From: Desulfuromonadaceae bacterium
Lineage (GTDB): Bacteria > Desulfobacterota > Desulfuromonadia > Geobacterales > Pseudopelobacteraceae
Reading direction: 5' to 3'
DNA: 64,000 bases
NCBI GenBank assembly: GCA_028712665.1
Contig: JAQTRC010000003.1
Location: 12,927-76,926, forward strand
The translations under genes and the position numbers were made by a program. Below are positions 2,955-54,772 of the stretch, in pieces (position 1 is the first letter of the stretch; every line of letters begins with the position of its first letter). Below the pieces are notes generated by a model. The model saw only the letters and a list, made by a program, of their open reading frames with translations. It had not been told where the DNA came from and made no database searches.

Positions 2955-5426
2955 CTACCCTCGCACCCCTGCCGGGATCCCCTTGCCGGGACGCTGTTGT
3001 ATTTTAGGGTTGGAGAGAGTGGTGCGAGACTTTTTCGGCTGTTCCCTGGGAACCTTCGGAGCTGGTGGCGGGAACTTTTCCAGGGCCAGCCTGAGAGCCT
3101 CTCCAACCTCGGAAACCGGCACTATTTTAACCTTCTTCAGAATTTCCGGCGGAATATCCTCCAGGTCCTTCCTGTTCTGTTCGGGAATAATTACCAGCCG
3201 CATCCGGGAACGGACGGCAGCCAGTATCTTTTCCTTTAACCCCCCTATCGGGAGTACCTTGCCGCGCAGCGTCACTTCTCCGGTCATTGCGACATCTTTT
3301 CTTACCGGGATACGGCAGAGGATCGAAACCAGAGCCGTCGTCATGGCAACGCCTGCAGAGGGTCCATCCTTTGGTATTGCACCGGCCGGAACATGAACAT
3401 GAATCTCATTATCCTTGAAGATGTCCGGTTTCAGATTCATGGTATCGGCATGGGCCCTGATAAACGATAGAGCCGCCTGTACCGATTCCTTCATTACATC
3501 GCCCAGTTGACCGGTCAGAGTCAGCCCGGCCTTGCCGCTCATCAGAGTGGCCTCGATATGCAGAATTTCGCCTCCAACCGGGGTCCAGGCCAGGCCGTTT
3601 ACGACTCCGATCTCGTTCTTGTCCAGATCTTCCTCGCGCACGAACTTGGGGGCGCCCAGGTAGTTATGCAAGGTTTTGGCGGTTACCTTTACGAGACGCT
3701 GGTTACCCTCTGCCACCTTGCGTGCTACCTTGCGGCATACTTTGCCTATCTCCCGTTCCAGGTTACGCAACCCGGCCTCGCGGGTGTACTTGCCGATTAT
3801 ATCGCTGATAGATTCATCGTCAAAGCAGATATGTTTGGGTTTGAGACCGTTTTCTTTCGTCTGGCGCGGCACCAGATAACGCTTGGCGATCTCAAGTTTC
3901 TCCTCCTCGGTGTAGCCGGCCAGATTTATGACCTCCATACGGTCGCGCAGGGCGGACGGGATCGGGTCAATCTGATTGGCGGTAGCAACGAACATTACAT
4001 TTGCAAGGCTGAAGGGCTGGTTGATGTAATGGTCGGAGAAAGAGTGATTCTGCTCCGGGTCGAGTACCTCCAGAAGCGCCGAAGAGGGATCCCCCTTGTA
4101 GTCGTAGCCTAGTTTGTCCAGCTCATCCAGCATGAAAACGGGGTTGTTTGCTCCGGCCTGCTTCATCCCCTGCAGTATGCGCCCCGGCAGGGCGCCGATG
4201 TAGGTGCGGCGATGGCCGCGAATCTCCGCCTCGTCACGGACACCCCCAAGAGAAATACGCACAAACTTGCGATTCATGGCGCGAGCGATAGATTTGCCCA
4301 AGGATGTTTTACCAACACCCGGCGGCCCGACAAAGCAGAGAATCGGACCTTTCATCTTCTTTTTAAGCTTTCGCACCGCCAGAAATTCCAGGATGCGTTC
4401 CTTTATTTTGTCCAGATAGAAGTGGTCATCGTCCAGAATTTGTTTGGCGCGGACAATGTCTAGACTGTCACGGGTCGACTTGCTCCAGGGAAGCTCCACC
4501 ATCCAGTCCAGATAGGTGCGTATGATCCCCGCTTCACCGGCATCCGGATGCATGTTTTCGAGGCGGCCCAGCTGTTTAAGCGCCTCTTTCTGTACCGTTT
4601 CCGGCATCTTGGCCGCTTCGATGGCCTTCCTTATTTCGGCCATTTCCTCTTTGCCTTCATTATCTCCCAGTTCACTCTGAATGGCCTTCATCTGCTCGCG
4701 AAGGTAGTATTCCTTATGGTTTTTACCCATCTCCTCGCGGGCCGCGTTCTGAATTTTTACCTGTACGCTTAAAAGTTCCACTTCGCGGTTCAAAAACTCA
4801 TTGACCTTGGTCAGACGCACGATCGGATCGTTGATTTCAAGCAGCAGTTGGGCGTCGGCAACTTTAAGACCCAGATTGCTGGAGATCAGATCGGCCATGC
4901 TGCCAGGGTCCTGGATATTCTCAAGAATAACCATGACTTCGGGAGAAACCTGCTTTCCAAGTTCCACCACCTTGGCCAGCTGCTCGCGCACGGTGCGAAC
5001 CAGCGCCTCGATTTCCAGGGAAATATCCCCCATAGGGGTATCATACTGCCGCTCGGAACGAACCAGATAAAACGGACTGTCGGAGACATACTCCGTGATA
5101 CGGGCTTTGGCCAATCCCTGTACAAGTATCTTTACCCGCCCATCCGGCAATTTGAGCATCCGCATGATCATCGCAACCGTGCCAAATTCATATATCTTTT
5201 CTGGAGGCGGATCCTCATCGCCGATATCGTGCTGGGTTGCGAGCAGTATCATCCGGTCGCCGGCCAGGGCGCTGTCAACCGCCTTGACCGACATCTCGCG
5301 CCCGACGAATAGAGGAATGATCATGAAAGGGTAGACAACCACATCCCTGATCGGTAAAAGTGGCAGCAGCTCTGGAATTTTCAGTTCTTCCGTACTCTGT
5401 TCGGTATCGTTCTCAATCTCGCTCAA
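2955..5426 (-). CDS. lon: ATP-dependent Lon protease
   Basis: 823 aa. Contains a LON N-domain, Walker A GPPGVGKTS and the C-terminal protease motif PKDGPSAG. Confidence 0.97.
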   Translation of the reverse strand: MSEIENDTEQSTEELKIPELLPLLPIRDVVVYPFMIIPLFVGREMSVKAVDSALAGDRMILLATQHDIGDEDPPPEKIYEFGTVAMIMRMLKLPDGRVKILVQGLAKARITEYVSDSPFYLVRSERQYDTPMGDISLEIEALVRTVREQLAKVVELGKQVSPEVMVILENIQDPGSMADLISSNLGLKVADAQLLLEINDPIVRLTKVNEFLNREVELLSVQVKIQNAAREEMGKNHKEYYLREQMKAIQSELGDNEGKEEMAEIRKAIEAAKMPETVQKEALKQLGRLENMHPDAGEAGIIRTYLDWMVELPWSKSTRDSLDIVRAKQILDDDHFYLDKIKERILEFLAVRKLKKKMKGPILCFVGPPGVGKTSLGKSIARAMNRKFVRISLGGVRDEAEIRGHRRTYIGALPGRILQGMKQAGANNPVFMLDELDKLGYDYKGDPSSALLEVLDPEQNHSFSDHYINQPFSLANVMFVATANQIDPIPSALRDRMEVINLAGYTEEEKLEIAKRYLVPRQTKENGLKPKHICFDDESISDIIGKYTREAGLRNLEREIGKVCRKVARKVAEGNQRLVKVTAKTLHNYLGAPKFVREEDLDKNEIGVVNGLAWTPVGGEILHIEATLMSGKAGLTLTGQLGDVMKESVQAALSFIRAHADTMNLKPDIFKDNEIHVHVPAGAIPKDGPSAGVAMTTALVSILCRIPVRKDVAMTGEVTLRGKVLPIGGLKEKILAAVRSRMRLVIIPEQNRKDLEDIPPEILKKVKIVPVSEVGEALRLALEKFPPPAPKVPREQPKKSRTTLSNPKIQQRPGKGIPAGVRG

Positions 5427-5857
5427 TCTGCAATCTCCTTTATAGACACCAGTCTTTCACCGCACTTGGGACATACCACCCGCAACACCCCCAGGCGGTA
5501 TTCCGCCGTGATAGCAGCCGGTTCAACATTTACAGGGATAAGTACCGCATGGTGAAAACTGCCGTAGCTTCGTTCTACACAGATAAACTTGCCGTTGTTC
5601 TGCTCTCTCGGCCTATGAGCTTCCAGCACCAAAGTCAGTCCGCACATTTTGAGTGAAATGCTCTCCAAGACAAACCCGGGGAGGTCGAACTCGATGATGA
5701 TCTCACTGCAGGTTTCATACATGTCCATCTTCGGACGGTTTTCATCCTCTTCAAAGATGTCCCGCAGCTCAAGTGCTTGTAGCAGGTTTCGCATTTCGCC
5801 AATATGACGGCTGAAAATTTCCTGTTGAAACGGCTTTCTGCCACTGAATCTGGGCAT
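5423..5857 (-). CDS. Hsp20/alpha-crystallin family small heat-shock protein
   Basis: 144 aa with an alpha-crystallin-like core (DMYETCSEIIIEFDLPGF ... AEYRLGVLRV). Its stop overlaps the lon start by 4 nt. Confidence 0.7.
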   Translation of the reverse strand: MPRFSGRKPFQQEIFSRHIGEMRNLLQALELRDIFEEDENRPKMDMYETCSEIIIEFDLPGFVLESISLKMCGLTLVLEAHRPREQNNGKFICVERSYGSFHHAVLIPVNVEPAAITAEYRLGVLRVVCPKCGERLVSIKEIAD

Positions 5858-5933
5858 GGGGGCACCTGTAATGTAAAGGTAGTGAAGCCTTTAGTGTAAA
5901 ACCAATTTAGTCTCCATACATAAAACCAATAAG

Positions 5934-5962
5934 AAAGTAAACATTCCATCCGGCAAAGTCAA
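5934..5962 (-). promoter_or_regulatory. candidate sigma70 promoter for hsp20-lon
   Basis: The minus strand reads TTGACT, 17 nt, TACTTT, about 75 nt upstream of the hsp20 ATG. Confidence 0.35.
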
Positions 5963-6094
5963 GGGAGGCAATTTGCTTAATTTCGACATCAATGCGAATC
6001 AATTTAAAATTGACATTGACCATCCTATGCAATAGATAGGATGATTCAGATTCATGCAATTTGGGTTTACCAACCGGGAAACGGGGTACCAGCC

Positions 6095-38626: not shown

Positions 38627-39961
38627 TTAAATCTTGTCCCCCTTCAAATCTGCGGCAAACAACTTTCCCGCACCGCGAGAGGCGCAGAAATCGCCGCACA
38701 TGGTGCAGGTGGCCTCGTCCTCCGGTCTGCGACTCTCCCTGATGGCGAGGGCATCCTCCGGATAGAGCGCCAGCTCGAACTGCTTCTCCCAGTTCAGGTC
38801 GCGGCGCGCCTTGGACATCTCTTTATCACGCTGGCGCCCCTTCTCCGGATATTTGTTCATATCGCCGATGTAGGCCGCAATTTTGGCCGCCTTGACCCCC
38901 ATCCGCACGTCCTCCTCGTTCGGGAGAGCCAGGTGCTCGGACGGGGTTATGTAGCAGATCAGATCGGCCCCGAAACGACTCGATTGGGCAGCGCCAATAG
39001 CGGCGGTGATATGGTCGAAACCGGGGGCCACGTCGGTTGCGATCGGGCCGAGCATATAGTACGGCGCGCCGCCGCTCATCCTTTTTTGCAGCTGGATGTT
39101 CCCCTCGATCTCGTCCAGAGGCAGATGTCCCGGCCCTTCCACCAGCATCTGGCACCCCATCTCGCGGCCGATCTCTGCAAGTTCGCAATTGAAGATCAAC
39201 TCCTGGGTCTGGACCCGGTCCGATGAGTCGTGAATCGCTCCGGCCCTGAGGCCGTTACCGAGAGAGAGCACGGTGTCGTACTTTTTCAGGATTGAGACCA
39301 CCCTGTCAAATTTCTCGTAGAGCGGGTTTTCACGGTTGTTGGCGATCATCCAGGCCACCATGGAAACTCCCCCTTTGGAAACCAGTCCGCCGTAACGGTA
39401 CCCCTGCTTGCGCAGCCGCTCGATGGTGCAGAGGTTGATACCGCAGTGCACAGCCATGAAGGCCATGCCGTCTGCGCACTGCCTCTCGATGATGTCGAAC
39501 AGCATCTCCTCGTCCAGCTTGTTCGGGTCTCCGTATTTACGGGCCGCCTCGCAGAAAGCCTGATAGAGCGGCACGTTGCCGACCGGAAGATCGACAGCGG
39601 CGACTACCTCCCGCCTGACCCGATCGAGGTCGCCGCCGACGGAGAGTTCCATAAGGGTGTCGGCCCCGGATTCCTCTGCTGCGAGAGCCTTCCTGATCTC
39701 AGCCCCATAGTCGATGATATCCGAGGAGGTGCCGATGGAGGCGTTGACCTTGGTGGAAAGTCCCTTGCCGATCCCGGCGATGCGGCCCGGCTTGCGGTTC
39801 TGGTTCCAGGGGATGACTATCTTACCTTCAGCCACCATTTTACGGATGTATTCAACATCGAGCTCTTCGTTAACGGCTACTGTCTGCATCTGAGCGGTGA
39901 TGAAGCCCTGCCGGGCGGATTCGATCTGCGTCAACATCGGTTCATTCCTCTCATCTCTCAT
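38627..39961 (-). CDS. bzaF: ThiC-family radical SAM enzyme, predicted 5-hydroxybenzimidazole synthase
   Basis: 444 aa ThiC homolog with a C-terminal Cys motif CTMCGDFC. It is embedded between cobT and cobS, downstream of a cobalamin riboswitch. Confidence 0.7.
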   Translation of the reverse strand: MRDERNEPMLTQIESARQGFITAQMQTVAVNEELDVEYIRKMVAEGKIVIPWNQNRKPGRIAGIGKGLSTKVNASIGTSSDIIDYGAEIRKALAAEESGADTLMELSVGGDLDRVRREVVAAVDLPVGNVPLYQAFCEAARKYGDPNKLDEEMLFDIIERQCADGMAFMAVHCGINLCTIERLRKQGYRYGGLVSKGGVSMVAWMIANNRENPLYEKFDRVVSILKKYDTVLSLGNGLRAGAIHDSSDRVQTQELIFNCELAEIGREMGCQMLVEGPGHLPLDEIEGNIQLQKRMSGGAPYYMLGPIATDVAPGFDHITAAIGAAQSSRFGADLICYITPSEHLALPNEEDVRMGVKAAKIAAYIGDMNKYPEKGRQRDKEMSKARRDLNWEKQFELALYPEDALAIRESRRPEDEATCTMCGDFCASRGAGKLFAADLKGDKI

Positions 39962-39978
39962 CTCTCATCATCGCCTTT

Positions 39979-41046
39979 TCACCCCTGCGATACCCCGGCC
40001 TGCTCGAAGGTCGCCATCTCTTTCAACAGCTTCACTCCGGCATCGATCAGGGTCATGGCCAAAGCGGCGCCTGTTCCTTCGCCAAGGCGGAGTTTGAGAT
40101 CAAGGATCGGTTCAACACCGATCCGCTCCAGCATGAAGCTATGGCCGATTTCTACCGACTGGTGGGCGGCGAATATGTAATCACGCACATTGGGATGCAG
40201 CTCCGAAGCGATCAGGGCTCCGGCCGTGGAGATGAAGCCATCGATCACCACCGGAATCGAGTTGGCGGCACAACCAAGCACCAATCCTGCAATAGCGGCT
40301 ATTTCGAACCCGCCAACCTTGGAAAGAACGTCAAGAGGATCTTTAGGGTCCGGGTTATTGACGGCAAGTCCAAGTTCGATTACCCGTACCTTATTGAGCA
40401 GGGCTGCATCGCCTATACCGGTGCCGCGGTGTGTGACCTCCGACACTTTTTTGCCGGATATGGCCGCTATAATGGCAGATGACGGCGTGGTGTTGCCGAT
40501 CCCCATCTCGCCGGTGCCGACCAGCCCCACCCCTTCAGCATGGCACTTGTCAGCCAGCTCGATTCCGACAAAGAGTGCGGCCTGCATCTCTTCGCGGGTC
40601 ATGGCCGGCCCCTTTGCAAAATTTCGGGTACCTCGTGCAACTTTTTTGCGTATCAGTCCGGCTGTATCGGCAAAGTCATAATCGACCCCGACATCAACCA
40701 CCCGCACCTCGGCCCCTGCATGACGCGCGAGGACGTTGATCCCCGCGCCTCCCGCCAGGAAATTAAAAACCATCTGCGCTGTTACTTCCTTGGGAAATAG
40801 CGAGACCCCCTCTTCTACGACCCCATGGTCAGCGGCAAAGGTAAAAATAACTCTCTTCGAGATATCCGGCTGCCGGCTGCCTCTGATACCGACAATACGG
40901 CAGGCAAACTCTTCCAGCCTCCCAAGCGAGCCAAGCGGCTTGGTCTTGTTGTCCAGAAGAAGCTGGGCCTGCTGTAGAAGATCGGGGCTGACCGGTTTAA
41001 TGCGTTCGAGCGTGTTTTTTATTTTATCCATATAATTCCCTTTCAT
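39979..41046 (-). CDS. cobT: nicotinate-nucleotide--dimethylbenzimidazole phosphoribosyltransferase
   Basis: 355 aa with motifs GEMGIGNTT and EGTGA. ATGA overlap with the cobU stop. Confidence 0.93.
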
Positions 41047-41576
41047 TTCAGTTTTAACGGAATCCCGCTGATAACGACATGGACCTCCGTCGCCGACGCT
41101 GCCAGTATTTGATTGGTCTTGCCGGCAATATCCCGGAACAGTCGCGCAAGGTTATTTTCCGGCACGATACCCATTCCCAACTCGTTTGACACCATTATTA
41201 CCGGCGTAACCATCCCGTGCAGAGTCGTTTTCAGACGCTGCACATCTTCGAAAATGCTGGCCTCGATATCTTCGCCGGATTGTTCATACTTGAGCAGCAG
41301 ATTGGAAAGCCAGAGTGTGATGCAGTCCACCAGTACAGCCCGATACTGACCATCACAGCGTGCCAGGGCCTGAGCGAGGTGAATCGGCTCCTCGATCGTC
41401 CTCCACTCCGCTCCGCGCCGTTCTATATGTCTGCTTACGCGCTCATCCATCTCTATATCCAGAGCCTGCGCCGTTGCCAGATAAGCGAGCTGCGCGCCGA
41501 AATTACGCGTCACTTTTTCGGCAAAGGCGCTCTTGCCGCTGCGTGCTCCACCGGTTATGAAGATAGTGTGTGACAT
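41043..41576 (-). CDS. cobU: adenosylcobinamide kinase / adenosylcobinamide-phosphate guanylyltransferase
   Basis: 177 aa with P-loop [10 protein letters not shown]. Confidence 0.92.
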
Positions 41577-41773: not shown

Positions 41774-41839
41774 CTCGAAGCAACGGGGAATATACAACCC
41801 GACCTCGGCCCCTCTTTCCACGGAGGTTCCAGAAAGCGT

Positions 41840-42000
41840 CGGAATGGCAGGTTTCCTGGCTTCAGGGTCATCTTACTAGCCGCGCCTTCCCAAAATTACT
41901 TTCAGTGGCCGCTGCGGTTTTCATCGCCTGTTACAGTTGCGGGACAGCGAGGGGGTCGCACCCTCTTCCCTATTATCCGTGCCTTGAGCGGCACGGCACC
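41840..42000 (-). ncRNA. cobalamin (B12) riboswitch
   Basis: The minus strand contains AAUAGGGAAGAGGGUGCGA...CCCGCAACUGUAA, then GCCACUG...GGGAAGGCG, then the B12 box AGCCAGGAAACCUGCC. Confidence 0.9.
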
Positions 42001-42033
42001 AAAACCGTGTGTGATGTAACAATTGTAAGGAGG

Positions 42034-44701: not shown

Positions 44702-46645
44702 TCACTCCGCCTGCTGCATGACCCTCGATAATTCCGCCTCAAGCAGATTCATGCTGTACGGTTTCCGGATTAATCCGGAAGGGGCTTGACCGGTGGTGGT
44801 GCGCCCACCCAGTTCCTCTTCATTGAAGCCGCTGGCAAGGATTACCTTTGTGTCCGGCCTGATATTGTAAATTTCGTTCATCGCAGCTATTCCATCCATG
44901 TTCGGCATGGTCAGATCCATCAGAACGACAGCAATATCGTCCGAATGTTCACGGAATTTAGCGACCGCATCGACGCCGTCATGGGCGGTAATAACCCTGA
45001 AGCCGCAGAGCTTGACCATCTTGGTACAGACTTTAAGGACGGACTTTTCATCATCCACCACCAGGGCCAGACCGGAATGCGTGGTCAAAGGCATGGTGTC
45101 TATAACCGATGCAGACGTAACCTGTTCTTGATCCGTGGCAGGGAGTGAGGATTCCGAAACCGGGAACAGCGCCCTGAAGGTTGTCCCCTTGCCAGGTTTG
45201 CTCTCCACAAACAGGGCTCCGCGGTGTGTCCTCATTATCCCCATGACCGCCGACATTCCAAGTCCACGTCCGGTAAACTTCGTTGTAAAGAAGGGGTCGA
45301 AGATCAGTTTTATCGTTTCCTTGCTCATGCCGCAGCCGTTATCGCTGACCTCCAGGTACGCAAAGCGCCCCGGCAACGGTTTCTCCTCCAGCAGACTGGA
45401 GGCCAGAAAAGTTTGGTCGCAATCCTGGATGCCGGTGGTGAGCTTTATAATGCCCGGCTGCTCTTCAATCGATTCGGCGGCGTTGGTGATCAGATTCATC
45501 ACCACCTGCTGAATTTGGGCTTCACATGCCAAAATGGTCGGCAGTTCCGGAGAGAGGGACAGTTTCATCGAAGCGCCTGCCAGGACTACCGTATTAAGCA
45601 TTTCAGTATTATCCATGACCAGATGATTCAGGTTCACTTCCTCTTTGGTAATAAATCCGACGCCCACATAGGTCAGCATCAAGCTGGTAAGATGAGCTGC
45701 ATGCCTGCCCGAGTTCAAAGCATTTGCGAGATACTTTTGGGACTTCGAACTTGGAGCAAGCCCCATCGAGGCCAGCTCAATATTGCCGAGAATAGACTGC
45801 AAAAGGTTGTTGAAATCGTGGGCAATACCTCCCGCCATAACTCCCAGACTCTCCAGTTTCTGTGTTTGCAACATCTGACGTTCAAGATTCAAACGCTCTT
45901 CCTGGAGGCGGGAATTCTCCTCGCTTCGTTGTTGCAATTCGGTAGCCAGGTTATTGACGGCAACAGCCGCCCGACCCGGTTCATCATTGGTTACAATGTT
46001 GATCCGGGAGGTAAAGTCACCGTTATGCACGGCCTCTATTCCCTTCATAAGGGCATTAAAAGAGCCGGTGACCTGACGTAATACAATATGGCAGAACAGG
46101 GATACCGTCAGCCAGAAGAGAAAGGAAATGCTGACGGAGAATATAATCACATTGCGGACAGCAGCTGACAGGTCGGCCGTTCCACGCACAATTCGCACGG
46201 TTCCGATCTTGGTTCTGGAAGCTTCATGGCCACCGGTAAAGGATGAATCGACCGAATAGGTCAGGGGGTTACTGAACACTTCCACCGTTTGGCTTATCAA
46301 CCCGATTGATTTGGAATCGTCCGGCGAACCGACGAAGGCCAGGAGTTTGCCATCCGGATCGTTGATTACTACCGCGCTGATTTCCGGAGCCTGAGCCGCC
46401 CTCTCTGCCAACTGCCTCAGCAGATCGCGATTTCCGGCATACAGCGGAAGCCTGGCGGACTCGCCCAATTGCTCCGTACGCAGCTTGAGCTGTTCGTTAG
46501 CTGCGAGTCGTTTTTCTTGAATTACAGAGACAATGTACAGAAAGCACAACGTGCAGGCGATCAGAAAGGTCAGCAGGGAAAATATCGAGAAGAGTTTGAA
46601 TTGAAAACTGGATCGAAAGCTTGACGATCGTTCTGGTGGTGACAT
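44702..46645 (-). CDS. hybrid sensor histidine kinase (TM, periplasmic domain, TM, HAMP, HisKA, HATPase_c, REC)
   Basis: 647 aa. Two TM helices flank a ~140-aa periplasmic segment. H-box GGIAHDFNNLL, G-box GRGLGMS and a C-terminal receiver (LVVDDE...LMDLTMPNMDG). Confidence 0.9.
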   Translation of the reverse strand: MSPPERSSSFRSSFQFKLFSIFSLLTFLIACTLCFLYIVSVIQEKRLAANEQLKLRTEQLGESARLPLYAGNRDLLRQLAERAAQAPEISAVVINDPDGKLLAFVGSPDDSKSIGLISQTVEVFSNPLTYSVDSSFTGGHEASRTKIGTVRIVRGTADLSAAVRNVIIFSVSISFLFWLTVSLFCHIVLRQVTGSFNALMKGIEAVHNGDFTSRINIVTNDEPGRAAVAVNNLATELQQRSEENSRLQEERLNLERQMLQTQKLESLGVMAGGIAHDFNNLLQSILGNIELASMGLAPSSKSQKYLANALNSGRHAAHLTSLMLTYVGVGFITKEEVNLNHLVMDNTEMLNTVVLAGASMKLSLSPELPTILACEAQIQQVVMNLITNAAESIEEQPGIIKLTTGIQDCDQTFLASSLLEEKPLPGRFAYLEVSDNGCGMSKETIKLIFDPFFTTKFTGRGLGMSAVMGIMRTHRGALFVESKPGKGTTFRALFPVSESSLPATDQEQVTSASVIDTMPLTTHSGLALVVDDEKSVLKVCTKMVKLCGFRVITAHDGVDAVAKFREHSDDIAVVLMDLTMPNMDGIAAMNEIYNIRPDTKVILASGFNEEELGGRTTTGQAPSGLIRKPYSMNLLEAELSRVMQQAE

Positions 46646-46749: not shown

Positions 46750-47616
46750 CTAAAAACCATCCCCTTCGACTGATTGTCCCAGACGCTTCAACACAACGGG
46801 ATTGCTCCTGGGTATAATATTTTTCGGAAAAGCAAGCGGTATGCTGCCAATAGGGTCGCCGTTCAGAATCGCCGAGACCATGGCGCTGGCCTGACGCCCC
46901 AGGCTGATTCGGTCTATTTCAAGGACGACCGCCGCACCCAGCCCCAGATAATTGCCGGCAAAAGAGACGACCGGTATGGCCTGATCCTGTCCGAAACGGA
47001 AATATGCCTCGGTTGTTTCCCTGGTCACCGCTGTGCTGTCCGGCAGCATCCAGAGAGCATCCACCTTGCGGTCCAGCGTCGAAAGCCGTTCTATTGTCTC
47101 ACGGGGTTCGGATATTTCGCGGGTCACCAGTTCGATTCCGGTCGCTTCGGCGGCCTTGCGGGCCAGATGAAGGTACCAGCCGCTCCTGGCCGGATTGTAG
47201 ATTACGCCTACGCGTCTGGTTTTCATGGCCTGGAACATTCTGATACTGCGTTCCGGATGAACGAACATACCGATGCCGGTCAGGTTGGGGTGTAAAGCCT
47301 TCCGGCCATGGATGCCGAGCGACATTACGGTTACCACCGGAGTCTGCGGAACCTTGCGGGCCACTGTCAGGGCGGCGTCCCCCACGGCGAGTATCAGCGT
47401 CGGACGATCCTCGCGCACAATCCGGACAATATCCACCTCGGCATAGTCGGAGAGCACGATCACCCGACGTGAGACGGCACTATCGGCGCGGAAGCCCTTC
47501 AGCACCTCATCGTAGGCCTGATCGCGGCGACTCTGGAGCACCAGGACGTCATAGGCCTGGGCCAGAGAGGGGAGCAGGGTCGCCAGGGCGAGTATCAGAG
47601 AGACAAGGTATCTCAT
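46750..47616 (-). CDS. orphan periplasmic binding protein, ABC_sub_bind (PF04392/COG2984)-like, copy 1
   Basis: 288 aa with a signal peptide. Motifs NLTGIG, RRVGVIYNP, VDALWMLPD and IPVVSF match the ABC_sub_bind pattern. There is no permease or ATPase nearby. 1-nt overlap (TGATG) with the receptor gene. Confidence 0.75.
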   Translation of the reverse strand: MRYLVSLILALATLLPSLAQAYDVLVLQSRRDQAYDEVLKGFRADSAVSRRVIVLSDYAEVDIVRIVREDRPTLILAVGDAALTVARKVPQTPVVTVMSLGIHGRKALHPNLTGIGMFVHPERSIRMFQAMKTRRVGVIYNPARSGWYLHLARKAAEATGIELVTREISEPRETIERLSTLDRKVDALWMLPDSTAVTRETTEAYFRFGQDQAIPVVSFAGNYLGLGAAVVLEIDRISLGRQASAMVSAILNGDPIGSIPLAFPKNIIPRSNPVVLKRLGQSVEGDGF

Positions 47617-49451
47617 CAGAAGCTCACCCTCATTCCGCCTTCGAACCAGCGGCCGGGATTCGGAACCATATCATACTGGTACTGACCGTTGCTGAAGAGG
47701 TTCCGGCCGGAGAAGAACAGTTCCAGCGAACTGTTCTCGCGCTTGAAGAGGATCGCCCCCAGGTGCAGATCCCACAGCAGACCGCCGTAACGAGGGTTGT
47801 CTCCCGGCATGGAGTTCCAGTTGATATGGCTGCCGGTCAAGAGGGCGCGATAGGTTTTGTCGTCATACCGCAGGGAGAGTTTGACGGTGTGACGCGGGGC
47901 ATAATTGACCTGCGCGCCGTCGCTGCTGCGGGTGGTGTCTACGAAGGTGTATCCGGCCCCTAGTGAGGTATTCCAGAGCGGGGTGGTGCGGAGTTCGGCC
48001 TCAGCCCCCAAGGCTTCGTGCCGTTCCACATCCTTCCCCCATGTCTCATTGCGGAAGACGGTTCCCTTCAGCCAGAGATAGGGTACTGAGGTGCTCTCCA
48101 TGCCGATCTGGGTGGTCCAGATCTTCTCCGATGGCTTGTCCACGTCAAGAAACTGAGGCACGCCATAGCCACGGGCGGCATAGGCCCGCAGCATGGTAGT
48201 CTCGCTGGCCTGCCAGGTGCCCCCCAAAGAGTAGCTGTACTGGTCCCCTGCGGTCTGGGTGTGGTCGAAGCGGACTCCGGGGGTGACGCTGAAGCTCCCC
48301 AGCGTGACGGTGTCGTTCAGGTAGGCGCCCCAACGATCGGCAGCCCTGCTGAAAGGACTGTAGGTTGAACCGTCCATGGTGTTGCTGTTATTCTCCAGAT
48401 GGCTGTAGTCGCCACCCGTCACCAGCAGGTCATTATCCCCGCGCCGGACCAGTTTGATACTGGCGCCGCTGACCTGGTTGCTGAAACTGCCGGTGGGGAG
48501 ATCGGGCTGCCAAGTGAGGCCATCGCTGATGTTGAACCAGGAAGTATCGCCTTTCAGAAATGAGTGGCGAGCGCTGAATTCCAATTCCAGCCGCTCGCTG
48601 AGCGGCTGGCGCAGGCCGATGTTGGCGAAGAGCAGGCTTTTGTCCTGATTCTCCTTCAGATCATAGGCCGGGATGAAGAGATCCCCCTGCCTGATCTGGC
48701 TGCGGTTGAAGGTGGCGTAGAGCCGGCCGCTGCCGGGGAGATCCCAGGTCAGTCGGGCATGGGCGTTGGTGGAGGCGTTCTGGGTATTGGGGAGGATGCC
48801 GTTGCTCCCCAGGAAACCGCCCGATAGGTAGTACCCCAGTCTTCCGCTGCTGCCGGAGAGTTCCAGGGAACTGTCGGCGGTGGTCCGCTCGCCGATGGAG
48901 GCGCTGGCAGTGCCGGAGAGGGTGCGGTCTTGCACCGGAGCCTTGGTGATAACGTTGATCACCCCGGCCAGGGCCGAGCCCCAGGCCGCAGAAGCAGCTC
49001 CTTTGACGATCTCGACCCGCTCGATGATCCGGGCCGGAATCAGGGTGGTTTCGGAGTAATTGTCCCCAAGATTGGTTATTGAGAGCCCGTCCACAAAGAC
49101 CTGGACGTGTTGGAAGCTGGAACTTTGGATAAAAGTGTAGGCGGTGATGCCGGGACCGCCGTTGTGCAAAACCTGGATGCCGGGGATTGTATCGAGAATG
49201 TCGGCCAGGGTATGGGCGTTCATGGCCGCGATGTCGGCGAAGGTTATAACGGTGACGTTCTCGGCGGTCTGGGAGAGCGGCTTGGGGGCGCGGCTGGCTG
49301 TGGAGGCGCTCTCCTGCCAGGCGCTGAACAGTTCGAGGGTATCCTCGTCGTCCGGCTCGGCGGCTAAAACCGTACAGGGCAGGAGCACGATCATCAACCA
49401 GATGACAGAAAACAATCCCCGCAGGGTATGTAAAGGTGAGAAATTTGACAT
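47616..49451 (-). CDS. TonB-dependent outer-membrane receptor, copy 1
   Basis: 611 aa with a signal peptide, a plug domain (ENVTVIT...IERVEIVKGAASAAWGS), a beta-barrel and a terminal Phe. Confidence 0.9.
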   Translation of the reverse strand: MSNFSPLHTLRGLFSVIWLMIVLLPCTVLAAEPDDEDTLELFSAWQESASTASRAPKPLSQTAENVTVITFADIAAMNAHTLADILDTIPGIQVLHNGGPGITAYTFIQSSSFQHVQVFVDGLSITNLGDNYSETTLIPARIIERVEIVKGAASAAWGSALAGVINVITKAPVQDRTLSGTASASIGERTTADSSLELSGSSGRLGYYLSGGFLGSNGILPNTQNASTNAHARLTWDLPGSGRLYATFNRSQIRQGDLFIPAYDLKENQDKSLLFANIGLRQPLSERLELEFSARHSFLKGDTSWFNISDGLTWQPDLPTGSFSNQVSGASIKLVRRGDNDLLVTGGDYSHLENNSNTMDGSTYSPFSRAADRWGAYLNDTVTLGSFSVTPGVRFDHTQTAGDQYSYSLGGTWQASETTMLRAYAARGYGVPQFLDVDKPSEKIWTTQIGMESTSVPYLWLKGTVFRNETWGKDVERHEALGAEAELRTTPLWNTSLGAGYTFVDTTRSSDGAQVNYAPRHTVKLSLRYDDKTYRALLTGSHINWNSMPGDNPRYGGLLWDLHLGAILFKRENSSLELFFSGRNLFSNGQYQYDMVPNPGRWFEGGMRVSF

Positions 49452-49539
49452 GGCGTTAGCGTTAGCGTTGTAGTATACATATTTCAGTCCGGTTGTCCAC
49501 CGGTTATGTTATGTAAATCCACACGCAAGGGGGGTGAAC

Positions 49540-49644
49540 ATGATGCAGGAAACACACGAGGAACTGTTGGTGCTGGAAGAGGGCCACGAGGTTGGTGTTG
49601 TAAATTCGTGCTGCTCGGCAGCGCAAAATGCAAAGCTCAAGTAG
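49540..49644 (+). CDS. candidate RiPP precursor peptide (34 aa, not in ORF track)
   Basis: Ribosome-binding site AAGGGGGG ends 5 nt before the ATG. Translation: MMQETHEELLVLEEGHEVGVVNSCCSAAQNAKLK, i.e. an acidic leader-like half and a Cys-Cys core-like half. It is divergent from receptor copy 1 and on the same strand as the rSAM/SPASM gene. Confidence 0.5.
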   Translation: MMQETHEELLVLEEGHEVGVVNSCCSAAQNAKLK

Positions 49645-49653
49645 TCGTCACGA

Positions 49654-49676
49654 CCGGGAGGGCGTGTCCCTCCCGG
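49654..49676 (+). terminator. GC-rich hairpin 10 nt after the peptide stop (possible terminator or stabiliser, no U-tract)
   Basis: CCGGGAGGG, CGTGT, CCCTCCCGG. Confidence 0.4.
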
Positions 49677-49787
49677 CTGCCCCATCGAAATATCCCCGCC
49701 GGTTTATCCGCGACATCCATAATCGTGCCAAAATACAAAATGCACAAAGAAGGTATCAGCATTTCATGGGGGGGGTGAGTATGTTTT

Positions 49788-50093
49788 TTATGCGGCTTTC
49801 ATCGGGTGTTCCTTCAAGTATGTCCGCAGCGCCTCATTCATGCGAGTCTGCCAGCCTTTGCCGGTAGACTTGAAAGTCGTGAGAATATCCCGGTCAAGCC
49901 GAACTGTCTGCAGCTCTTTAACGCCGCTGCCCAGCTTGCGGCCTGATTTGGGCGCCAGCATCCCGTCCGCAACTTCTTTGCCTAAAATCTCATGCAGCAC
50001 TTCCCGTGCAGGCCGGGCATTTTTGAAATCCTCGGCAGTCCATTCCGGGTTTTCGTCATCAATCAAGCATGGATTCGGTTTGGTTGTTGCCAT
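49788..50093 (-). CDS. brnA: BrnA-family antitoxin
   Basis: 101 aa. The C-terminus VRLDRDILTTFKSTGKGWQTRMNEALRTYL matches the BrnA RHH-like pattern. Confidence 0.8.
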   Translation of the reverse strand: MATTKPNPCLIDDENPEWTAEDFKNARPAREVLHEILGKEVADGMLAPKSGRKLGSGVKELQTVRLDRDILTTFKSTGKGWQTRMNEALRTYLKEHPMKAA

Positions 50094-50346
50094 GTTCTTT
50101 TACCTCTCTATTGTTAGCTTTTCTAAGACTTATGACGTGAATCCCGCCGTTTCTGGGAGTTATCACCGCAACATGCAGACGCTCACCAATATAACCAAAA
50201 ACCCTGAAGCGTCTTTCGCCATAATCCTTTCGGGTGTCTTCTCTGACTACGGAATTATCCCAGTCGATACTTGCAAACAGCTCGAAAGAAAGGCCGCGCT
50301 CTTCAATGTTTCTGCTGTTTTTGACTTCATTATAAGTAATCTTCAC
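50059..50346 (-). CDS. brnT: BrnT-family (DUF497) ribonuclease toxin
   Basis: 95 aa. The pattern N..ERGLSFE...DYGERRF...HVISLRKAN is typical of BrnT. Overlaps brnA by 35 nt. Confidence 0.8.
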   Translation of the reverse strand: MKITYNEVKNSRNIEERGLSFELFASIDWDNSVVREDTRKDYGERRFRVFGYIGERLHVAVITPRNGGIHVISLRKANNREVKEHGNNQTESMLD

Positions 50347-50375
50347 AACAATATTTGTAACAACATATTCAACTC

Positions 50376-51740
50376 ATGTCAATGGAGAAAACCCGGGCTG
50401 CAACCCGTTGCAACCCATCATTACCACCGATCGAAAGGGCATCGTCCATGGAACTTACCCACTACCACAAAATCTACCCCATACCTGACAAACCGGGGCG
50501 GCTGCTGCTGGTCGCCACCCGTCGCTGCTCTCTTCTTGAGCTTTCCGAGGCGCTGTGGGACAAGCTCTGCAACGGCGGCGAGCTGACCCAAAAGGAACTG
50601 GAGACTTTTATCCGCCTGGGGGTGCTGGTGGAAAGCCGCGCCGACGAACGGGAAGAGATGCGGGGCACCTTTGACACCATAAACAGCTCAAGCCGACGCT
50701 TTGAGGTGACGGCGGCCCTGACCCTGGAGTGCAATCTGGCCTGCCCCTACTGTTTCGAAGATCCCTTCCGGGGGCGTTTCGTGATGAGCGCGGAGACCGC
50801 CGGCCTTCTGGTGCAGCTCCTCTGCGAGCGGATGTCCGCCGGTCTGGATGTATTGGTGGATTTCTACGGCGGCGAGGCTTTGATGCGGCTCGATCTGCTG
50901 CGGGGGATCGCCGCGCGCTTGAAGGATGCAGCCAGCCTCCACGGAGTAACCTTTGCCTTCAACCTCTTCTCCAACGGTGTCCTGCTGACCCGCAACGTGG
51001 TGGAGGAACTGCTGCCGCTGGGGCTGGCGGCGGTGCGGACAACCCTGGACGGCCCCCCCGACATCCACGACGCCCAGCGTCCGTTCGTCTCCGGCAAGGG
51101 GAGTTTTGACGTTATCCTGAAAAACCTGGTCTCGGTGCATGATATAGTGGCGCTGGATCTTGGGGGGAACTACACCTGCGAGAATTACCGCCGCTTCCCC
51201 GAGCTGCTGGATATCATGTTGGAGGCGGGAATCGACCCAGCACGGCTGAAAGGGGTCGATTTTTCGCCGGTCATGCCGAAGGCGGACGGCAGCGTGTCCG
51301 GCGATTTCGGTTCCGCCTGCGCATGTACGGGAGAGGCATGGGTAATTGAGGCCAACCTGTTTCTGCGGGATGAAATCATCCGGCGTGGCTTCCCGACTTC
51401 AAAGCTTCAGGCGAGCGCCTGCATGATCGAGTTCGCCAACGATATCGTGGTGGGATATGATGGTTCGTTCTATAAATGCCCGGTGTTCATGGGAGACCAG
51501 GAGATGCGGGTAGGGAGTCTGGCCGAGGGGATAGGCGACTACCGCCAATCCCACAACATGGACGTCTGGAAGAGCGACGAATGCCTGGAGTGCGCCTATC
51601 TGCCGCTCTGCTTCGGCGGCTGCCGATTCTTTCGCAAGTTGAAGAGCGGAGCGATCGATGGTGTTGACTGTCGCCGAACGATGCTGGACGCCTCGCTGGA
51701 GCGGATCGTCCGGCAGGATCTGTCGTTGAAGCGGCAGTAG
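50376..51740 (+). CDS. radical SAM/SPASM-domain peptide maturase
   Basis: CNLACPYC (CX3CX2C). SPASM motifs CX13GX4C (CMIEFANDIVVGYDGSFYKC) and CX2CX5CX3C (CLECAYLPLCFGGC). About 70 aa of RRE/PqqD-like N-terminal domain. The likely true start is the ATG at 50448 (MELTHYHKIYP). Confidence 0.88.
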   Translation: MSMEKTRAATRCNPSLPPIERASSMELTHYHKIYPIPDKPGRLLLVATRRCSLLELSEALWDKLCNGGELTQKELETFIRLGVLVESRADEREEMRGTFDTINSSSRRFEVTAALTLECNLACPYCFEDPFRGRFVMSAETAGLLVQLLCERMSAGLDVLVDFYGGEALMRLDLLRGIAARLKDAASLHGVTFAFNLFSNGVLLTRNVVEELLPLGLAAVRTTLDGPPDIHDAQRPFVSGKGSFDVILKNLVSVHDIVALDLGGNYTCENYRRFPELLDIMLEAGIDPARLKGVDFSPVMPKADGSVSGDFGSACACTGEAWVIEANLFLRDEIIRRGFPTSKLQASACMIEFANDIVVGYDGSFYKCPVFMGDQEMRVGSLAEGIGDYRQSHNMDVWKSDECLECAYLPLCFGGCRFFRKLKSGAIDGVDCRRTMLDASLERIVRQDLSLKRQ

Positions 51741-51877
51741 TTTGTTCAGCGATTCCCTTATAGAAGAATTCCATCTCTGGCCGGTTGTCCGGAGCGCTCG
51801 TTCCCGGGATTCTACATTTGTATGACTTTAACGAATTGGTATCATGGCCTGATTGCCCGCTGCAACTAAAAACCACC

Positions 51878-52735
51878 CTACTCGACTGATTGCCGGAGGC
51901 GCTTCAATACAACGGGATTACCTTTGGGCATTATGTTTTTTGGAAAAGCAAGCGGTCTGCTGCCGATAGGATCGTCCTCAAAAATTGCCGAGATCAGGGC
52001 GTTGGCCTGACGCCCCAGGCCGATTCGGTCTATTTCTAGCACGGCAGCTGCGCCAAGTTCCAGATAAGTTGCTGCAAAGGATACCACCGGCACACCCAGA
52101 TCCTGACCGAATCGGAAATAGGCCTCGGTTGTTTCCCGGGTAATGGCGGTAGTGTCAGGGATCATCCAGAGCGCATCCACTTTGTCCGCCAGGGAAGAGA
52201 TTTGGGCCAGCGTCTCGGATGATCTTGAGACCTCGCGGGTCACCAGTGTTATTCCGGCCGCCTGTGCCGCATTTTGAGCAAGCCGCAGGTACCAGCCGCT
52301 TTTGGCTGGATCGTAGATAAGGCCAACCCGCCTGGCTTTCATGCTCTTGAAAATGCTGATGTAGCGTTCCGGCGAAACGAACATACCGATGCCGGTCAGA
52401 TTGGAACGTGAAGACTTTTTGTCATGAATTCCGAGCGCCATAAGAGCGACCACCGGGATATGCTGTACCTTGCAGGCCTCTTTCAAGGCGGCGTCCCCCA
52501 AGGCCAGGATTAGCCTGGGGCGATCCTCGCGCACAATCCTGGATACGTCCAGATAGGAGTAATCGGAGAGCACCATCAGGCGGTAGCTGGCACTGTTCCC
52601 GGCACGGAAGCCTTTCAGCGCCTCCTCGTAACCGGTGTCGCGCCGACTCTGCAGCACCAGCACGTCGTAAGCCTGGGCAATGGTGGGGAGCAGGGTCGCC
52701 ATGGCGAGTATGATATAGATTAAGAGGGCTCGCAT
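51878..52735 (-). CDS. orphan periplasmic binding protein, ABC_sub_bind-like, copy 2
   Basis: The ATG at 52735 gives MRALLIYIILAMATLLPTIAQA, a signal peptide, with the same 1-nt TGATG overlap as copy 1. Collinear with copy 1 along the whole length, roughly two-thirds identical by eye. Confidence 0.75.
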   Translation of the reverse strand: MRALLIYIILAMATLLPTIAQAYDVLVLQSRRDTGYEEALKGFRAGNSASYRLMVLSDYSYLDVSRIVREDRPRLILALGDAALKEACKVQHIPVVALMALGIHDKKSSRSNLTGIGMFVSPERYISIFKSMKARRVGLIYDPAKSGWYLRLAQNAAQAAGITLVTREVSRSSETLAQISSLADKVDALWMIPDTTAITRETTEAYFRFGQDLGVPVVSFAATYLELGAAAVLEIDRIGLGRQANALISAIFEDDPIGSRPLAFPKNIMPKGNPVVLKRLRQSVE

Positions 52736-54606
52736 CAGAACTTCACCCTTAATCCGCCTTCGAACCATCGGGGAGCATTTACGCGGTAATCATCTGTGTA
52801 TTGAGCGTTATTGAAGAGATTGCGCCCGGAGAAAAACAGTTCCGACTCCACGCCTGCGCAATTTGGGAGCTTTTGCGAGATGTGAAGATCCCACTCCATC
52901 TGCCTGTCGTGGACGCTGTTCCCGGCATCGGACGGCCAGTTGACATGCGAACCGGTAATGTTTGCCTGAAACCCTCTCCTGACATTGTCATAGTGGAGGG
53001 CAATCCTTGTGGAACTGATCGGGATATACGGAATGCGGAGATCGGTTTTTTTGTCCCGAACGTCACTGTAAGTGTAGCCTGCTCTAAGGGAGAAGTCATA
53101 AAAGGGGACTGTGCGCCCTTCGATTTCAAATCCCCGTCTTACCTCCTTGGTTTCGGCGCTGCCAATCGCTGACATAGGGTAGTCCGACGGGACAACGAAG
53201 CTCTGAATGTTCCAGGTGTAACTGTAAAAGAGAGTCCCTTTCAGCCAGAGCAACGGGATGTCACTGGTTTCAATCCCGGACTGCAAGGTAAAGATATTCT
53301 GCAGGCTGTCCTTAAAGTTAGTCATGGGGAGGCTGTATCCCCTCGCAGCATAGGCACGGAGCAGAGTCTTCTCCGTAAACTGCCAGGTTGCCCCAAGATG
53401 GTAACTGGTTGCAACTTGTTCATTATCTCCGATATGGTCTAACCGTACCCCCGTCAGCAAGGTCAGATCGCCGATGGAATAGCTTCCATTAACATATGTC
53501 CCGTAGCGATTCATGTCCCGGTTGAAATTCATGTAGGAAAATCCGAGTAGCGGTTCACTGACGGAGACTTTGTCATGCAGATACTCAAACCCGGCAGCCA
53601 GATTGGTTCTGCGGTCTCCCCAGGTGAGTTTGGCGGCAACCTGTTCCGAATCGGTCCGATTCTTTGCATCAACTATCGTGATGGCTTCAGACATGATGTA
53701 CTTTCGCCAGATATCTTTCCTCATTACAGAAGAAAAGAGTTCCAGGTTGAGCCGGTCATTTATCGGGTATTCGAATCTAAGATACGCGGACGCATAGCGT
53801 GAACCGGTCGGAACAAGAGTATCAGGCATTATAGACGCATTATCGTAACCATAGTTGAACTCCCTGTCGCGGTAGTCGGCGGCAAATGTCAGCCTCCCCT
53901 TGTTAGGCAAGTCATAGGTTAACTTGCCAATGCCGTGATTAAGGGTAACCATGTTCCCCGGACGCAACCCGTTGGAGTTGAAACGACCGCCATCTATATA
54001 ATAACCCAGCCTCCCCTTTTTACCGCTTACTCCGCCACGCAGATCCGAAGTTCCGAGATCCCCGTAAGAGGCCGAAGCGATCCCTTTCAGATTTGCGTTC
54101 TCCGGATCACGCGTGATAACATTTACCGCACCTCCAAGCGCCGGGCCCCAGGCGACAGACGCAGCACCCTTGACAATCTCGATCCGTTCTATCCGCTGGA
54201 CCGGGATCATCCCGAGATCGGGGCTGTCATCCACCCCGAAGAGGTTCTGTGGAACACCATCGATCAGAAGCAGAACCTGATTGTTCATCGCGCCGTTAAT
54301 TGTAAATGCTACCGCACTACCCGGCGTCCTCATCTGGAAAAGCTGGATACCGGAGACCGTCTGCAGCACCTCATCCAGGGTATGGGCATTTATGCGGGCT
54401 ATGTCGTCCGCTGTGATTACCGTGACGTTTTCGGCGATTAAAGACGCGGGGCGGGGGATTTTGTAAGAAGGAATGTTTGTATCTTTACCATCACCGTCAA
54501 GGCCAAGGGCGCTTTCCACGGCATTATCTTCTCCCCGGGCCGGAAAAGCAGTCAATGCCGGGCAGAGCAGCAGAAACAACAGCAGCAGCCTTGTGGGAAA
54601 TCTCAT
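52735..54606 (-). CDS. TonB-dependent outer-membrane receptor, copy 2
   Basis: About 623 aa from the ATG at 54606 (the ORF track uses TTG at 54612). Signal peptide, plug (ENVTVIT...IERIEIVKGAASVAWG), barrel and terminal Phe. Confidence 0.9.
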   Translation of the reverse strand: MRFPTRLLLLFLLLCPALTAFPARGEDNAVESALGLDGDGKDTNIPSYKIPRPASLIAENVTVITADDIARINAHTLDEVLQTVSGIQLFQMRTPGSAVAFTINGAMNNQVLLLIDGVPQNLFGVDDSPDLGMIPVQRIERIEIVKGAASVAWGPALGGAVNVITRDPENANLKGIASASYGDLGTSDLRGGVSGKKGRLGYYIDGGRFNSNGLRPGNMVTLNHGIGKLTYDLPNKGRLTFAADYRDREFNYGYDNASIMPDTLVPTGSRYASAYLRFEYPINDRLNLELFSSVMRKDIWRKYIMSEAITIVDAKNRTDSEQVAAKLTWGDRRTNLAAGFEYLHDKVSVSEPLLGFSYMNFNRDMNRYGTYVNGSYSIGDLTLLTGVRLDHIGDNEQVATSYHLGATWQFTEKTLLRAYAARGYSLPMTNFKDSLQNIFTLQSGIETSDIPLLWLKGTLFYSYTWNIQSFVVPSDYPMSAIGSAETKEVRRGFEIEGRTVPFYDFSLRAGYTYSDVRDKKTDLRIPYIPISSTRIALHYDNVRRGFQANITGSHVNWPSDAGNSVHDRQMEWDLHISQKLPNCAGVESELFFSGRNLFNNAQYTDDYRVNAPRWFEGGLRVKF

Positions 54607-54772
54607 CTGCAAGGAAAAACCTCTAAGTTTTGATTACTTGATTGATATGACCTAACACAACTGGTGGCAAGTTGTCCAGTGCATATGATATTATTCAAAA
54701 AATTGGTGCTACTGCTGCGTAAAGAATATAATGGCGATACTAATCTTTCTGCAAGCATGATATATAATCCTG

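Follow-up and report, generated by a model that had tools for sequence, protein, structure and literature searches.

The geopeptide system is a computationally defined pair of genes from Geobacter and its relatives, in which a radical S-adenosylmethionine (SAM) maturase of the family TIGR04280 is encoded together with a small precursor peptide of the family TIGR04229. A locus of the same layout was analysed here in a stretch of 64,000 nucleotides (nt) from a Desulfuromonadaceae bacterium (assembly GCA_028712665.1, contig JAQTRC010000003.1, positions 12,927 to 76,926 of the forward strand), referred to below as the window. The analysis followed a sequence-only reading of one open reading frame (ORF) of the window, which had been described as a radical SAM/SPASM maturase. 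[quoted passage not shown] With the described system it shares the taxon, the two-gene layout, the leader motif and the cysteine pair. It differs in the precursor, which belongs to a clade with the leader motif LxVLEEG, an 8-residue spacer and a tail with AK-hydrophobic at its end and is not scored by TIGR04229, and in a toxin-antitoxin cassette that splits the gene pair. The coordinates of the features are collected in Table 1.

Four other described systems resemble the locus in part. The SCIFF maturase CteB (TIGR03974; PDB 5WGG and 5WHY) has a similar N-terminal peptide-binding domain, a radical SAM core and a SPASM domain with two clusters, and a short Cys-containing precursor is encoded next to it. 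The identity to CteB is only about 19-20%, however, and CteB leaves its first auxiliary cluster (Aux I) open for substrate (PMC6231123), whereas the window enzyme has an extra invariant cysteine, Cys291; the substrate cysteines number two here and six there, and the window genes are those of a Gram-negative host with a receptor operon. PapB (the freyrasin enzyme), QhpD, CefB, TIGR04463 and Clo7bot are the next relatives by hidden Markov model (HMM), at 91-127 bits, each far under the cutoff of its family, and act on Cys-bearing peptide or protein substrates, PapB and QhpD forming non-alpha thioethers (PMC10114670). Their substrates carry repeated Cys motifs with Asp, Glu or Asn acceptors, which the geopeptide tail does not have. 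In methanobactin operons (PMC3621798) the gene of a RiPP lies beside those of a periplasmic binding protein and of a dedicated TonB-dependent outer-membrane transporter, MbnT, an arrangement similar to that of the window, and cysteines are key to both peptides. The enzymes of that system are MbnBC and not radical SAM proteins, and its regulation is by sigma and anti-sigma factors and not by a hybrid kinase. Finally, the anaerobic sulfatase-maturating enzyme anSME (TIGR03942; PDB 4K36-4K39) shares the radical SAM core and a SPASM domain with the full cysteine set, but it has no N-terminal domain; in agreement with the sequence-only reading, no sulfatase gene was found near the maturase, within about 12 kb on either side.

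When the maturase was compared with the NCBIfam models, it matched TIGR04280, "geopeptide radical SAM maturase", over the full length at 637 bits (cutoff 400), a score far beyond chance. The runner-up models were all peptide maturases (CefB, 127 bits; TIGR04463, 126; Clo7bot, 118; PapB, 110), and the nif11-type, SCIFF and QhpD models gave 100, 98 and 91 bits. The cutoffs of the thioether families were not reached, being 340 bits for PapB (NF047865), 425 for SCIFF (TIGR03974) and 453 for QhpD (TIGR03906), so that, as judged by these profiles, the maturase is related to the PapB, SCIFF and QhpD families and is a member of none of them. The model of the anaerobic sulfatase maturases scored 57.7 bits against a cutoff of 349. 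The earlier proposal of a RiPP maturase and not a sulfatase maturase was thus upheld, both by the best model, that of a RiPP family, and by a precursor gene adjoining the maturase. A 100% identical protein of 430 amino acids (aa), from a metagenome-assembled genome (MAG) of Desulfuromonadaceae, already bears the name "geopeptide radical SAM maturase" in NCBI/GenBank, and the maturase, named in this way before, is an ordinary representative of the known geopeptide family. Homologues with E values of 1e-20 or less numbered 842, and the nearest relatives were 76-83% identical to the maturase. A genome scan gave 45 orthologous loci with maturase identities of 47-79%, titled in nearly all cases Geobacter, Pelobacter, Oryzomonas, Geobacteraceae, Desulfuromonadales or unclassified Deltaproteobacteria; one contig pair came from a MAG labelled Pedobacter. 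The pair of maturase and precursor genes is conserved across Geobacter, Pelobacter and Desulfuromonadales.

Three family members from outside the window (P0131, P0151 and P0190), each of about 720 aa, share a C-terminal extension of about 290 residues, which had no Pfam match and contains a conserved motif, RY-x-D[DN]FID-x-ALWP. DDxxD occurs within this motif in two of the three proteins, and the CX3CX2C motif is missing from P0190.

The ORF first described for the maturase is present in the window, but its coding sequence probably begins further downstream, the most likely true start being the ATG at 50448 and not position 50376. The start was moved because TIGR04280 aligned to residues 25-451 of the ORF with its positions 1-427 of 428, because the equivalent of Met25 is the start of all 48 aligned homologues, because the identical GenBank protein is 430 aa long, and because GAAAGGG lies 8 nt upstream of this ATG, with no such site at 50376. 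Residue numbers of the maturase are given below in the 430-aa numbering. The stretch SLLELSEALWDKLCNGGELTQKELETFIRLGVLVES, which had been quoted as preceding the radical SAM core, was found in the protein, but with the corrected start 94 residues, and not about 70, precede the first cluster cysteine.

The gene product is a radical SAM/SPASM enzyme with three clusters and an additional domain at its N-terminus. The CX3CX2C motif and the complete SPASM signature with its downstream cysteine, all read earlier from the letters of the sequence, could each be located in the protein (Table 1); Pfam Radical_SAM matched at 39.7 bits and the NCBIfam SPASM domain TIGR04085 at E 1.1e-13. Upstream of the signature lies the additional Cys291. 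In the family alignment of 49 sequences, the three radical SAM cysteines and the eight C-terminal cysteines are invariant. The loop which bears Cys291 (residues 276-293) was modelled with low confidence in the apo structure predicted by AlphaFold2 (AF2).

The RiPP recognition element (RRE) is defined as a three-stranded antiparallel β-sheet with three α-helices, to which the leader adds a strand, and SkfB's N-terminal domain has three strands and four helices (PMC6231123). An AF2 model of the maturase was built from the 49-sequence alignment and had a mean predicted local distance difference test score (pLDDT) of 83.5. In this model the N-terminal domain consists of strands at residues 7-11, 18-23 and 28-33 and helices at residues 34-42, 48-56, 64-72 and 74-81, so that the predicted topology contains the three-stranded sheet followed by three helices of an RRE. 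As modelled, the domain closely resembles that of SkfB, and an RRE-like fold of residues 1-82 is probable. In a Foldseek search of the PDB with the model, the best match was the RRE-bearing CteB (E 1.6e-20), with 462 alignment columns for a target of 421 residues. SuiB and SkfB, which also bear an RRE, were aligned like CteB over the whole targets, whereas anSME (E about 2e-13) was aligned over only about 380 columns, which left the N-terminal domain out. Profiles of other peptide maturases also reach into the domain. On the more divergent members of the family, the CefB and FlmE/OhkG HMMs aligned from residues 1-5 onward, and the CcpM, HxsB and RumMC HMMs did so from residues 10-20. Because these models align so near the start, the N-terminal domain and its counterparts in other peptide maturases are, by HMM alignment, homologous.

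Several results weigh against the RRE assignment. The Pfam PqqD model (PF05402) gave no match with the full maturase, nor with 26 N-terminal domains at E values up to 10, a profile of the N-terminal domain found among PDB sequences only chance matches to RPB9 (E about 0.1), and an AF2 model of the isolated domain made from the single sequence was poor (pLDDT 69) and gave nothing in Foldseek below E 0.8. The identification as an RRE rests on predicted structure. In a collection of 1.84 billion representative proteins the same profile had 87 matches; ten long ones were scanned, of which nine were TIGR04280 members and one had no NCBIfam match, and no bridge to PqqD was seen among the scanned matches. 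Of the N-terminus resembling PqqD and an RRE that had been described from the sequence, the RRE-like fold therefore stands as a confident βββ-ααα(α) prediction, and the link to PqqD was not recovered by sequence. Within the domain, an invariant Arg-Arg-Cys (R25-R26-C27, positions 50520-50528) opens the third β-strand in 49 of 49 aligned members. For a domain that binds peptides, such a conserved cysteine is uncommon.

The structural matches also bear on whether the maturase could instead be an anSME or a SPASM enzyme acting on a protein or cofactor, of the PqqE, MftC or QhpD type. The SPASM architecture is common to these enzymes, and anSME structures are good fold matches. However, the sulfatase-maturase and QhpD models scored far below their cutoffs, the anSME alignments omit the N-terminal domain which the CteB alignment covers, no sulfatase, dehydrogenase subunit, PQQ or mycofactocin genes lie nearby, and a dedicated small peptide gene is conserved beside the maturase. 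An anSME-type enzyme is therefore highly improbable, and this explanation can be regarded as effectively refuted.

A precursor gene lies upstream of the maturase in nearly all orthologous loci as well. In the window its start is preceded by a strong ribosome-binding site (RBS; aaggggggtga), and in the encoded peptide an acidic leader containing LLVLEEG is followed by a spacer of 8 residues, a CC pair and a 9-residue tail ending in AKLK. In 42 of the 45 orthologous loci, one small gene built in this way was found directly upstream of the maturase and on the same strand, in most of them separated from it by 50-75 nt. Two of the three loci without a precursor can be explained, since L009 has almost no upstream sequence and the upstream sequence of L012 is foreign. 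The precursor motif was found nowhere else in 79 loci and the window. The peptides of the family are 27-44 residues long and have an acidic N-terminus followed by [LIVM]x[LIVM][LIVM][DESA][EDK]G (φxφL(D/E)EG) and a spacer to the cysteines of 8 residues in 21 peptides and 9 in 18. The Cys pair is invariant and takes the form of CC in 34 peptides, CxC in 5 and CCC in 2. The tail consists of 6-10 mostly small residues with Lys or Arg 1-3 positions from the end. Aromatic residues are absent from the core tail in all but one of the 42 peptides and rare in the spacer.

TIGR04229, the curated model for geopeptide precursors (22 positions, cutoff 30 bits), gave no match to the window peptide even at E values up to 10. 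It registered only peptides of the clade with LEVLDEG and a 9-residue spacer, for which it gave 32.7, 27.1 and 23.6 bits, and one of four such peptides tested reached the cutoff; by this comparison TIGR04229 covers only part of the precursor family. The homology of the window peptide to geopeptide precursors accordingly rests on synteny and motif. The exact peptide was found in a collection of 15 billion proteins only in a Logan assembly, unnamed, and the window precursor is a divergent, effectively unannotated family member. Besides the failure of TIGR04229 to score it, two further points count against the assignment of the locus to a geopeptide system: NCBIfam grades TIGR04280 as a hypothetical equivalog, and a literature search found, within the library covered, no paper mentioning geopeptide or TIGR04280. 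Searches around Geobacter SPASM enzymes and ranthipeptides and around PF04392/COG2984 likewise gave nothing on the geopeptide system.

The maturase is closely followed by two small ORFs, one at 51742-51825 and one, also of 34 aa, at 51785-51889. They were considered as precursors and rejected, as they have no family match and no counterpart in the orthologues. Upstream of the precursor, a TTGTCCA box (49493-49499 in the window) lies 41-47 nt before the ATG in 19 of 42 loci, a position shared by the window and loci in the range L001-L020, L029, L039 and L040. The box forms a palindrome, TGTCCA-N6-8-TGGACA, in L010, L013, L015, L016 and L039, and in the other clade this position is taken by another palindrome, CCCATCC...GGATGGG. 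The box may be an operator or promoter element. In L039 a gene for a 212-aa SAM-dependent methyltransferase-like protein (5339-5977) is located between precursor and maturase on the same strand and may encode a tailoring enzyme.

With a leader, a cysteine-bearing core and a three-cluster enzyme, a course of the reaction can be proposed. The leader segment φxφL(D/E)EG would dock as an additional β-strand on the sheet of the RRE-like domain, which would bring the core, 8-9 residues on, into the active site. SAM, cleaved reductively at the CX3CX2C cluster, would then yield a 5'-deoxyadenosyl radical, and this radical would remove a hydrogen from a carbon atom in the core. One or both cysteines of the pair would trap the resulting substrate radical through their thiols to give one or more thioether rings of the ranthipeptide or sactipeptide type, and the two SPASM auxiliary clusters would take the electron. 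Thioether formation by the maturase on the core peptide is suggested because the nearest HMM families are thioether or Cys-rich-peptide enzymes, because CteB is the top fold match, and because aromatic acceptors are nearly absent; CefB, TIGR04463, PapB, SCIFF and QhpD either target Cys-rich peptides or form thioethers (PMC10114670). On sequence and model we hold the chances of this chemistry to be about evenly balanced. It is weakened by two features: no conserved thioether acceptor residue is evident in the tail, and with eight cysteines both auxiliary clusters may be fully ligated, so that, in contrast to CteB, an open iron site may be lacking.

The same features would fit a different radical reaction on the same peptide, such as the oxidation of a cysteine to formylglycine or a thioaldehyde, in the manner of the sulfatase maturases, the formation of a C-C or C-N cross-link at the conserved Lys or Arg, or an epimerization. 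SPASM enzymes catalyse many reactions (PMC10114670), full auxiliary clusters would be as in anSME and SuiB, the only invariant features of the core are the Cys pair and the Lys or Arg near the C-terminus, with no obvious conserved acceptor, and the scores to the characterized thioether families are far under their cutoffs. Yet the nearest families by HMM and the top structural match all point to Cys-rich-peptide or thioether enzymes, and one group of alternatives, the cyclophanes and the Trp or Tyr cross-links, is excluded because aromatic residues are missing from nearly all cores. We therefore regard a reaction other than thioether formation as rather unlikely.

The window differs from its orthologues in the DNA between precursor and maturase. 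Here a cassette of two genes is inserted in the opposite orientation; the genes match BrnT_toxin and BrnA_antitoxin far above the gathering thresholds (Table 1), overlap by 35 nt and form a type II toxin-antitoxin pair. Neither BrnT nor BrnA was matched in the 45 orthologous loci, and the insertion of a brnT/brnA cassette between precursor and maturase, seen in this window only, appears to be new. The insert is bracketed by a short direct repeat, and when the insert and one repeat copy are removed, 57 nt remain from the precursor stop to the maturase ATG, as in most orthologues. Repeats of 10 nt also arise by chance in this stretch, so that the position of the repeat is suggestive of an insertion mark but no proof of one. 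A comparison of the insert DNA with plasmids gave a 63-nt match only, which is uninformative. Between the precursor and the insert lies a perfect hairpin. Its fold in the window was not better than that of shuffled sequences (z -0.7). The equivalent position also holds a hairpin in two other loci, L001 (z -4.7) and L003 (z -3.5, with a T-run). The hairpin is likely to be an attenuator or a transcript-stabilizing stem between precursor and enzyme.

A point against a working system in this genome is that the insertion places about 800 nt of antisense genes between the precursor promoter and the maturase, which makes expression of the maturase uncertain. The system of the window could accordingly be inactive or decaying, the brnT/brnA insertion having uncoupled the maturase from the precursor promoter: the 736-nt antisense insert is unique among 46 loci, and the hairpin and convergent transcription would lower read-through. 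On the other hand, the precursor and maturase ORFs are both intact around the insert, all invariant residues are kept in an enzyme so similar to its nearest relatives, and a weak promoter-like site is present at 50342-50369, just 5' of the maturase. Given these observations, loss of function is improbable.

The genes on the other side of the precursor were compared with those of the orthologous loci. A TonB-dependent receptor is transcribed divergently from the precursor, with an intergenic gap of 88 nt; the start of the following gene, for a periplasmic binding protein, overlaps the receptor stop (TGATG), and a hybrid histidine kinase with two transmembrane segments around a periplasmic loop of about 115 aa, ahead of the HAMP domain, comes after it. 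A TonB receptor was found in the equivalent position and orientation in 41 of the 45 orthologous loci, and this adjacency is kept down to 47% maturase identity. The binding protein is next to the receptor wherever the contig is long enough, and in most loci with enough contig a kinase match was found downstream of the binding-protein gene. On the far side of the maturase, any one gene occurs in at most 4 of 40 loci, so that this flank is not conserved. A divergent operon of receptor, binding protein and kinase thus accompanies the peptide-maturase pair in 41 of 45 loci, an association which appears to be new.

The receptors fall into two clades in a neighbour-joining tree, and receptor clade tracks the type of the peptide tail, which also appears to be new. 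The tail motif [KR][ILV] is present in 15 of 16 loci with a clade-I receptor and in 1 of 24 with a clade-II receptor (Fisher 6e-9, a value uncorrected for phylogeny). Six loci (L004-L007, L017 and L029) nest in a maturase clade otherwise accompanied by clade-I receptors, but carry clade-II receptors and tails of Arg or Lys plus small residues. Because of this placement in the maturase tree, receptor type and tail type have changed jointly at least once.

From this gene neighbourhood a role for the peptide can be proposed. The cross-linked small peptide would leave the cell and re-enter the periplasm through the adjacent TonB-dependent receptor, and the PF04392 protein would bind it and modulate the hybrid histidine kinase, the peptide acting as a self-produced extracellular ligand, either a signal or a metal carrier sensed on its return. 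Signalling is preferred to import because the binding protein is found together with a kinase and with no permease. That the adjacent receptor, binding protein and kinase have the peptide product as their ligand is a tentative proposal, paralleled by the TonB transporter and the binding protein in methanobactin operons (PMC3621798). The fuller proposal, of a secreted cross-linked RiPP ligand serving Geobacter and related bacteria as an autocrine or quorum-type signal or as a sensed metallophore, with the tail setting receptor specificity, is one to which we give somewhat less than even confidence.

Two results speak against such a ligand: no conserved exporter, leader peptidase or tailoring gene was found nearby in the comparison of the downstream flanks, and the association of tail and receptor, uncorrected as it is, could reflect shared ancestry. 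The receptor operon may then not be the receiver of the peptide at all, being merely co-inherited with it or regulating the peptide genes through a metal or corrinoid ligand, and the peptide would act elsewhere, for example as an antimicrobial or intracellular product. In line with this, the best scores of the receptors, all weak, were to BtuB and to haem and siderophore receptor models, and the window contains a second cassette of receptor and binding protein without a peptide, so that cassettes occur alone. Against it stand the retention of the receptor beside distantly related maturases while the other flank is unconserved, and the joint switch of receptor clade and tail type within one maturase clade. 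A receptor operon unconnected with reception of the peptide is thus a real possibility, short of a probable one.

The second cassette, located downstream of the maturase, has a clade-II receptor and is also found at this place in L034 and L038. Elsewhere, receptors of its clade accompany peptides with a tail of Arg plus small residues, and no such tail is encoded in the window. If the peptide is the ligand of the first cassette, extra cassettes such as this one would detect the other tail type, from neighbouring species.

Table 1. Features of the geopeptide locus and its surroundings (window coordinates; residue numbers refer to the 430-aa maturase).
Feature	Position	Strand	Description
Hybrid histidine kinase	44702..46645	-	HAMP, HisKA, HATPase, REC
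Periplasmic binding protein PF04392 (ABC_sub_bind)	46750..47616	-	signal peptide
TonB-dependent receptor, cassette 1	47616..49451	-	clade I; Pfam Plug and TonB_dep_Rec_b-barrel
Geopeptide-type precursor gene	49540..49644	+	34 aa, MMQETHEELLVLEEGHEVGVVNSCCSAAQNAKLK; ORF, RBS, synteny, motif
Perfect 9-bp hairpin	49654..49676	+	CCGGGAGGG-cgtgt-CCCTCCCGG; 10 nt past precursor stop
10-nt direct repeat	49681-49690; 50427-50436		CCCATCGAAA and CCGATCGAAA; brackets the insert; 9/10 positions identical
Inserted cassette	49691..50426	-	736 nt, opposite orientation, between precursor and maturase
brnA antitoxin	49788-50093	-	Pfam BrnA_antitoxin PF14384, 80.5 bits (gathering 26.1)
brnT toxin	50059-50346	-	Pfam BrnT_toxin PF04365, 70.6 bits (gathering 34.5)
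Maximal ORF of maturase	50376..51740	+	454 aa, ORF present
Geopeptide radical SAM/SPASM maturase, coding sequence	50448..51740	+	430 aa, corrected start (most likely)
N-terminal RRE-like domain (predicted)	50448..50693	+	residues 1-82; AF2 pLDDT ~87-95 (block means)
CX3CX2C (CNLACPYC)	50730..50753	+	residues 95-102; radical SAM [4Fe-4S] ligands C95, C99, C102
Auxiliary-cluster region with SPASM domain	51318..51671	+	C291 to C408, eight cysteines
CX13GX4C	51420-51479	+	residues 325-344; C325-X13-G-X4-C344
CX2CX5CX3C	51582-51623	+	residues 379-392; C379-X2-C382-X5-C388-X3-C392
Downstream Cys408	51669-51671	+	maturase SPASM region
Second cassette (TonB receptor 2, PF04392 protein 2)	51878..54612	-	no kinase, no precursor
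PF04392 binding protein 2	51878 to about 52735	-	second cassette
TonB-dependent receptor 2	52735-54612	-	clade II

Other neighbours in the window are GroEL, a cobU-cobT-thiC-like operon, ferrochelatase and cyclophilin. A cobalamin riboswitch (41829-42018, minus strand, 114 bits) lies upstream of the cobU-cobT-thiC-family operon (38627-41576, minus strand), in which the ThiC-like gene beside cobT may be of the anaerobic benzimidazole synthase type. This operon is unrelated to the peptide system.

Since the family, and this very protein, had already been named, the finding of the maturase alone changes little. The precursor clade found here is missed by the curated model, which leaves such genes unannotated, and the precursors of this other main clade (L001-L021, L039, L040 and the window) are likely to be unannotated in public genomes. 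A short precursor and a single enzyme make an easy system for reconstitution. The near-universal pairing with a receptor, binding protein and kinase, together with the match between tail and receptor clade, provides a concrete and testable hypothesis for geopeptides in the metal-reducing Geobacterales.

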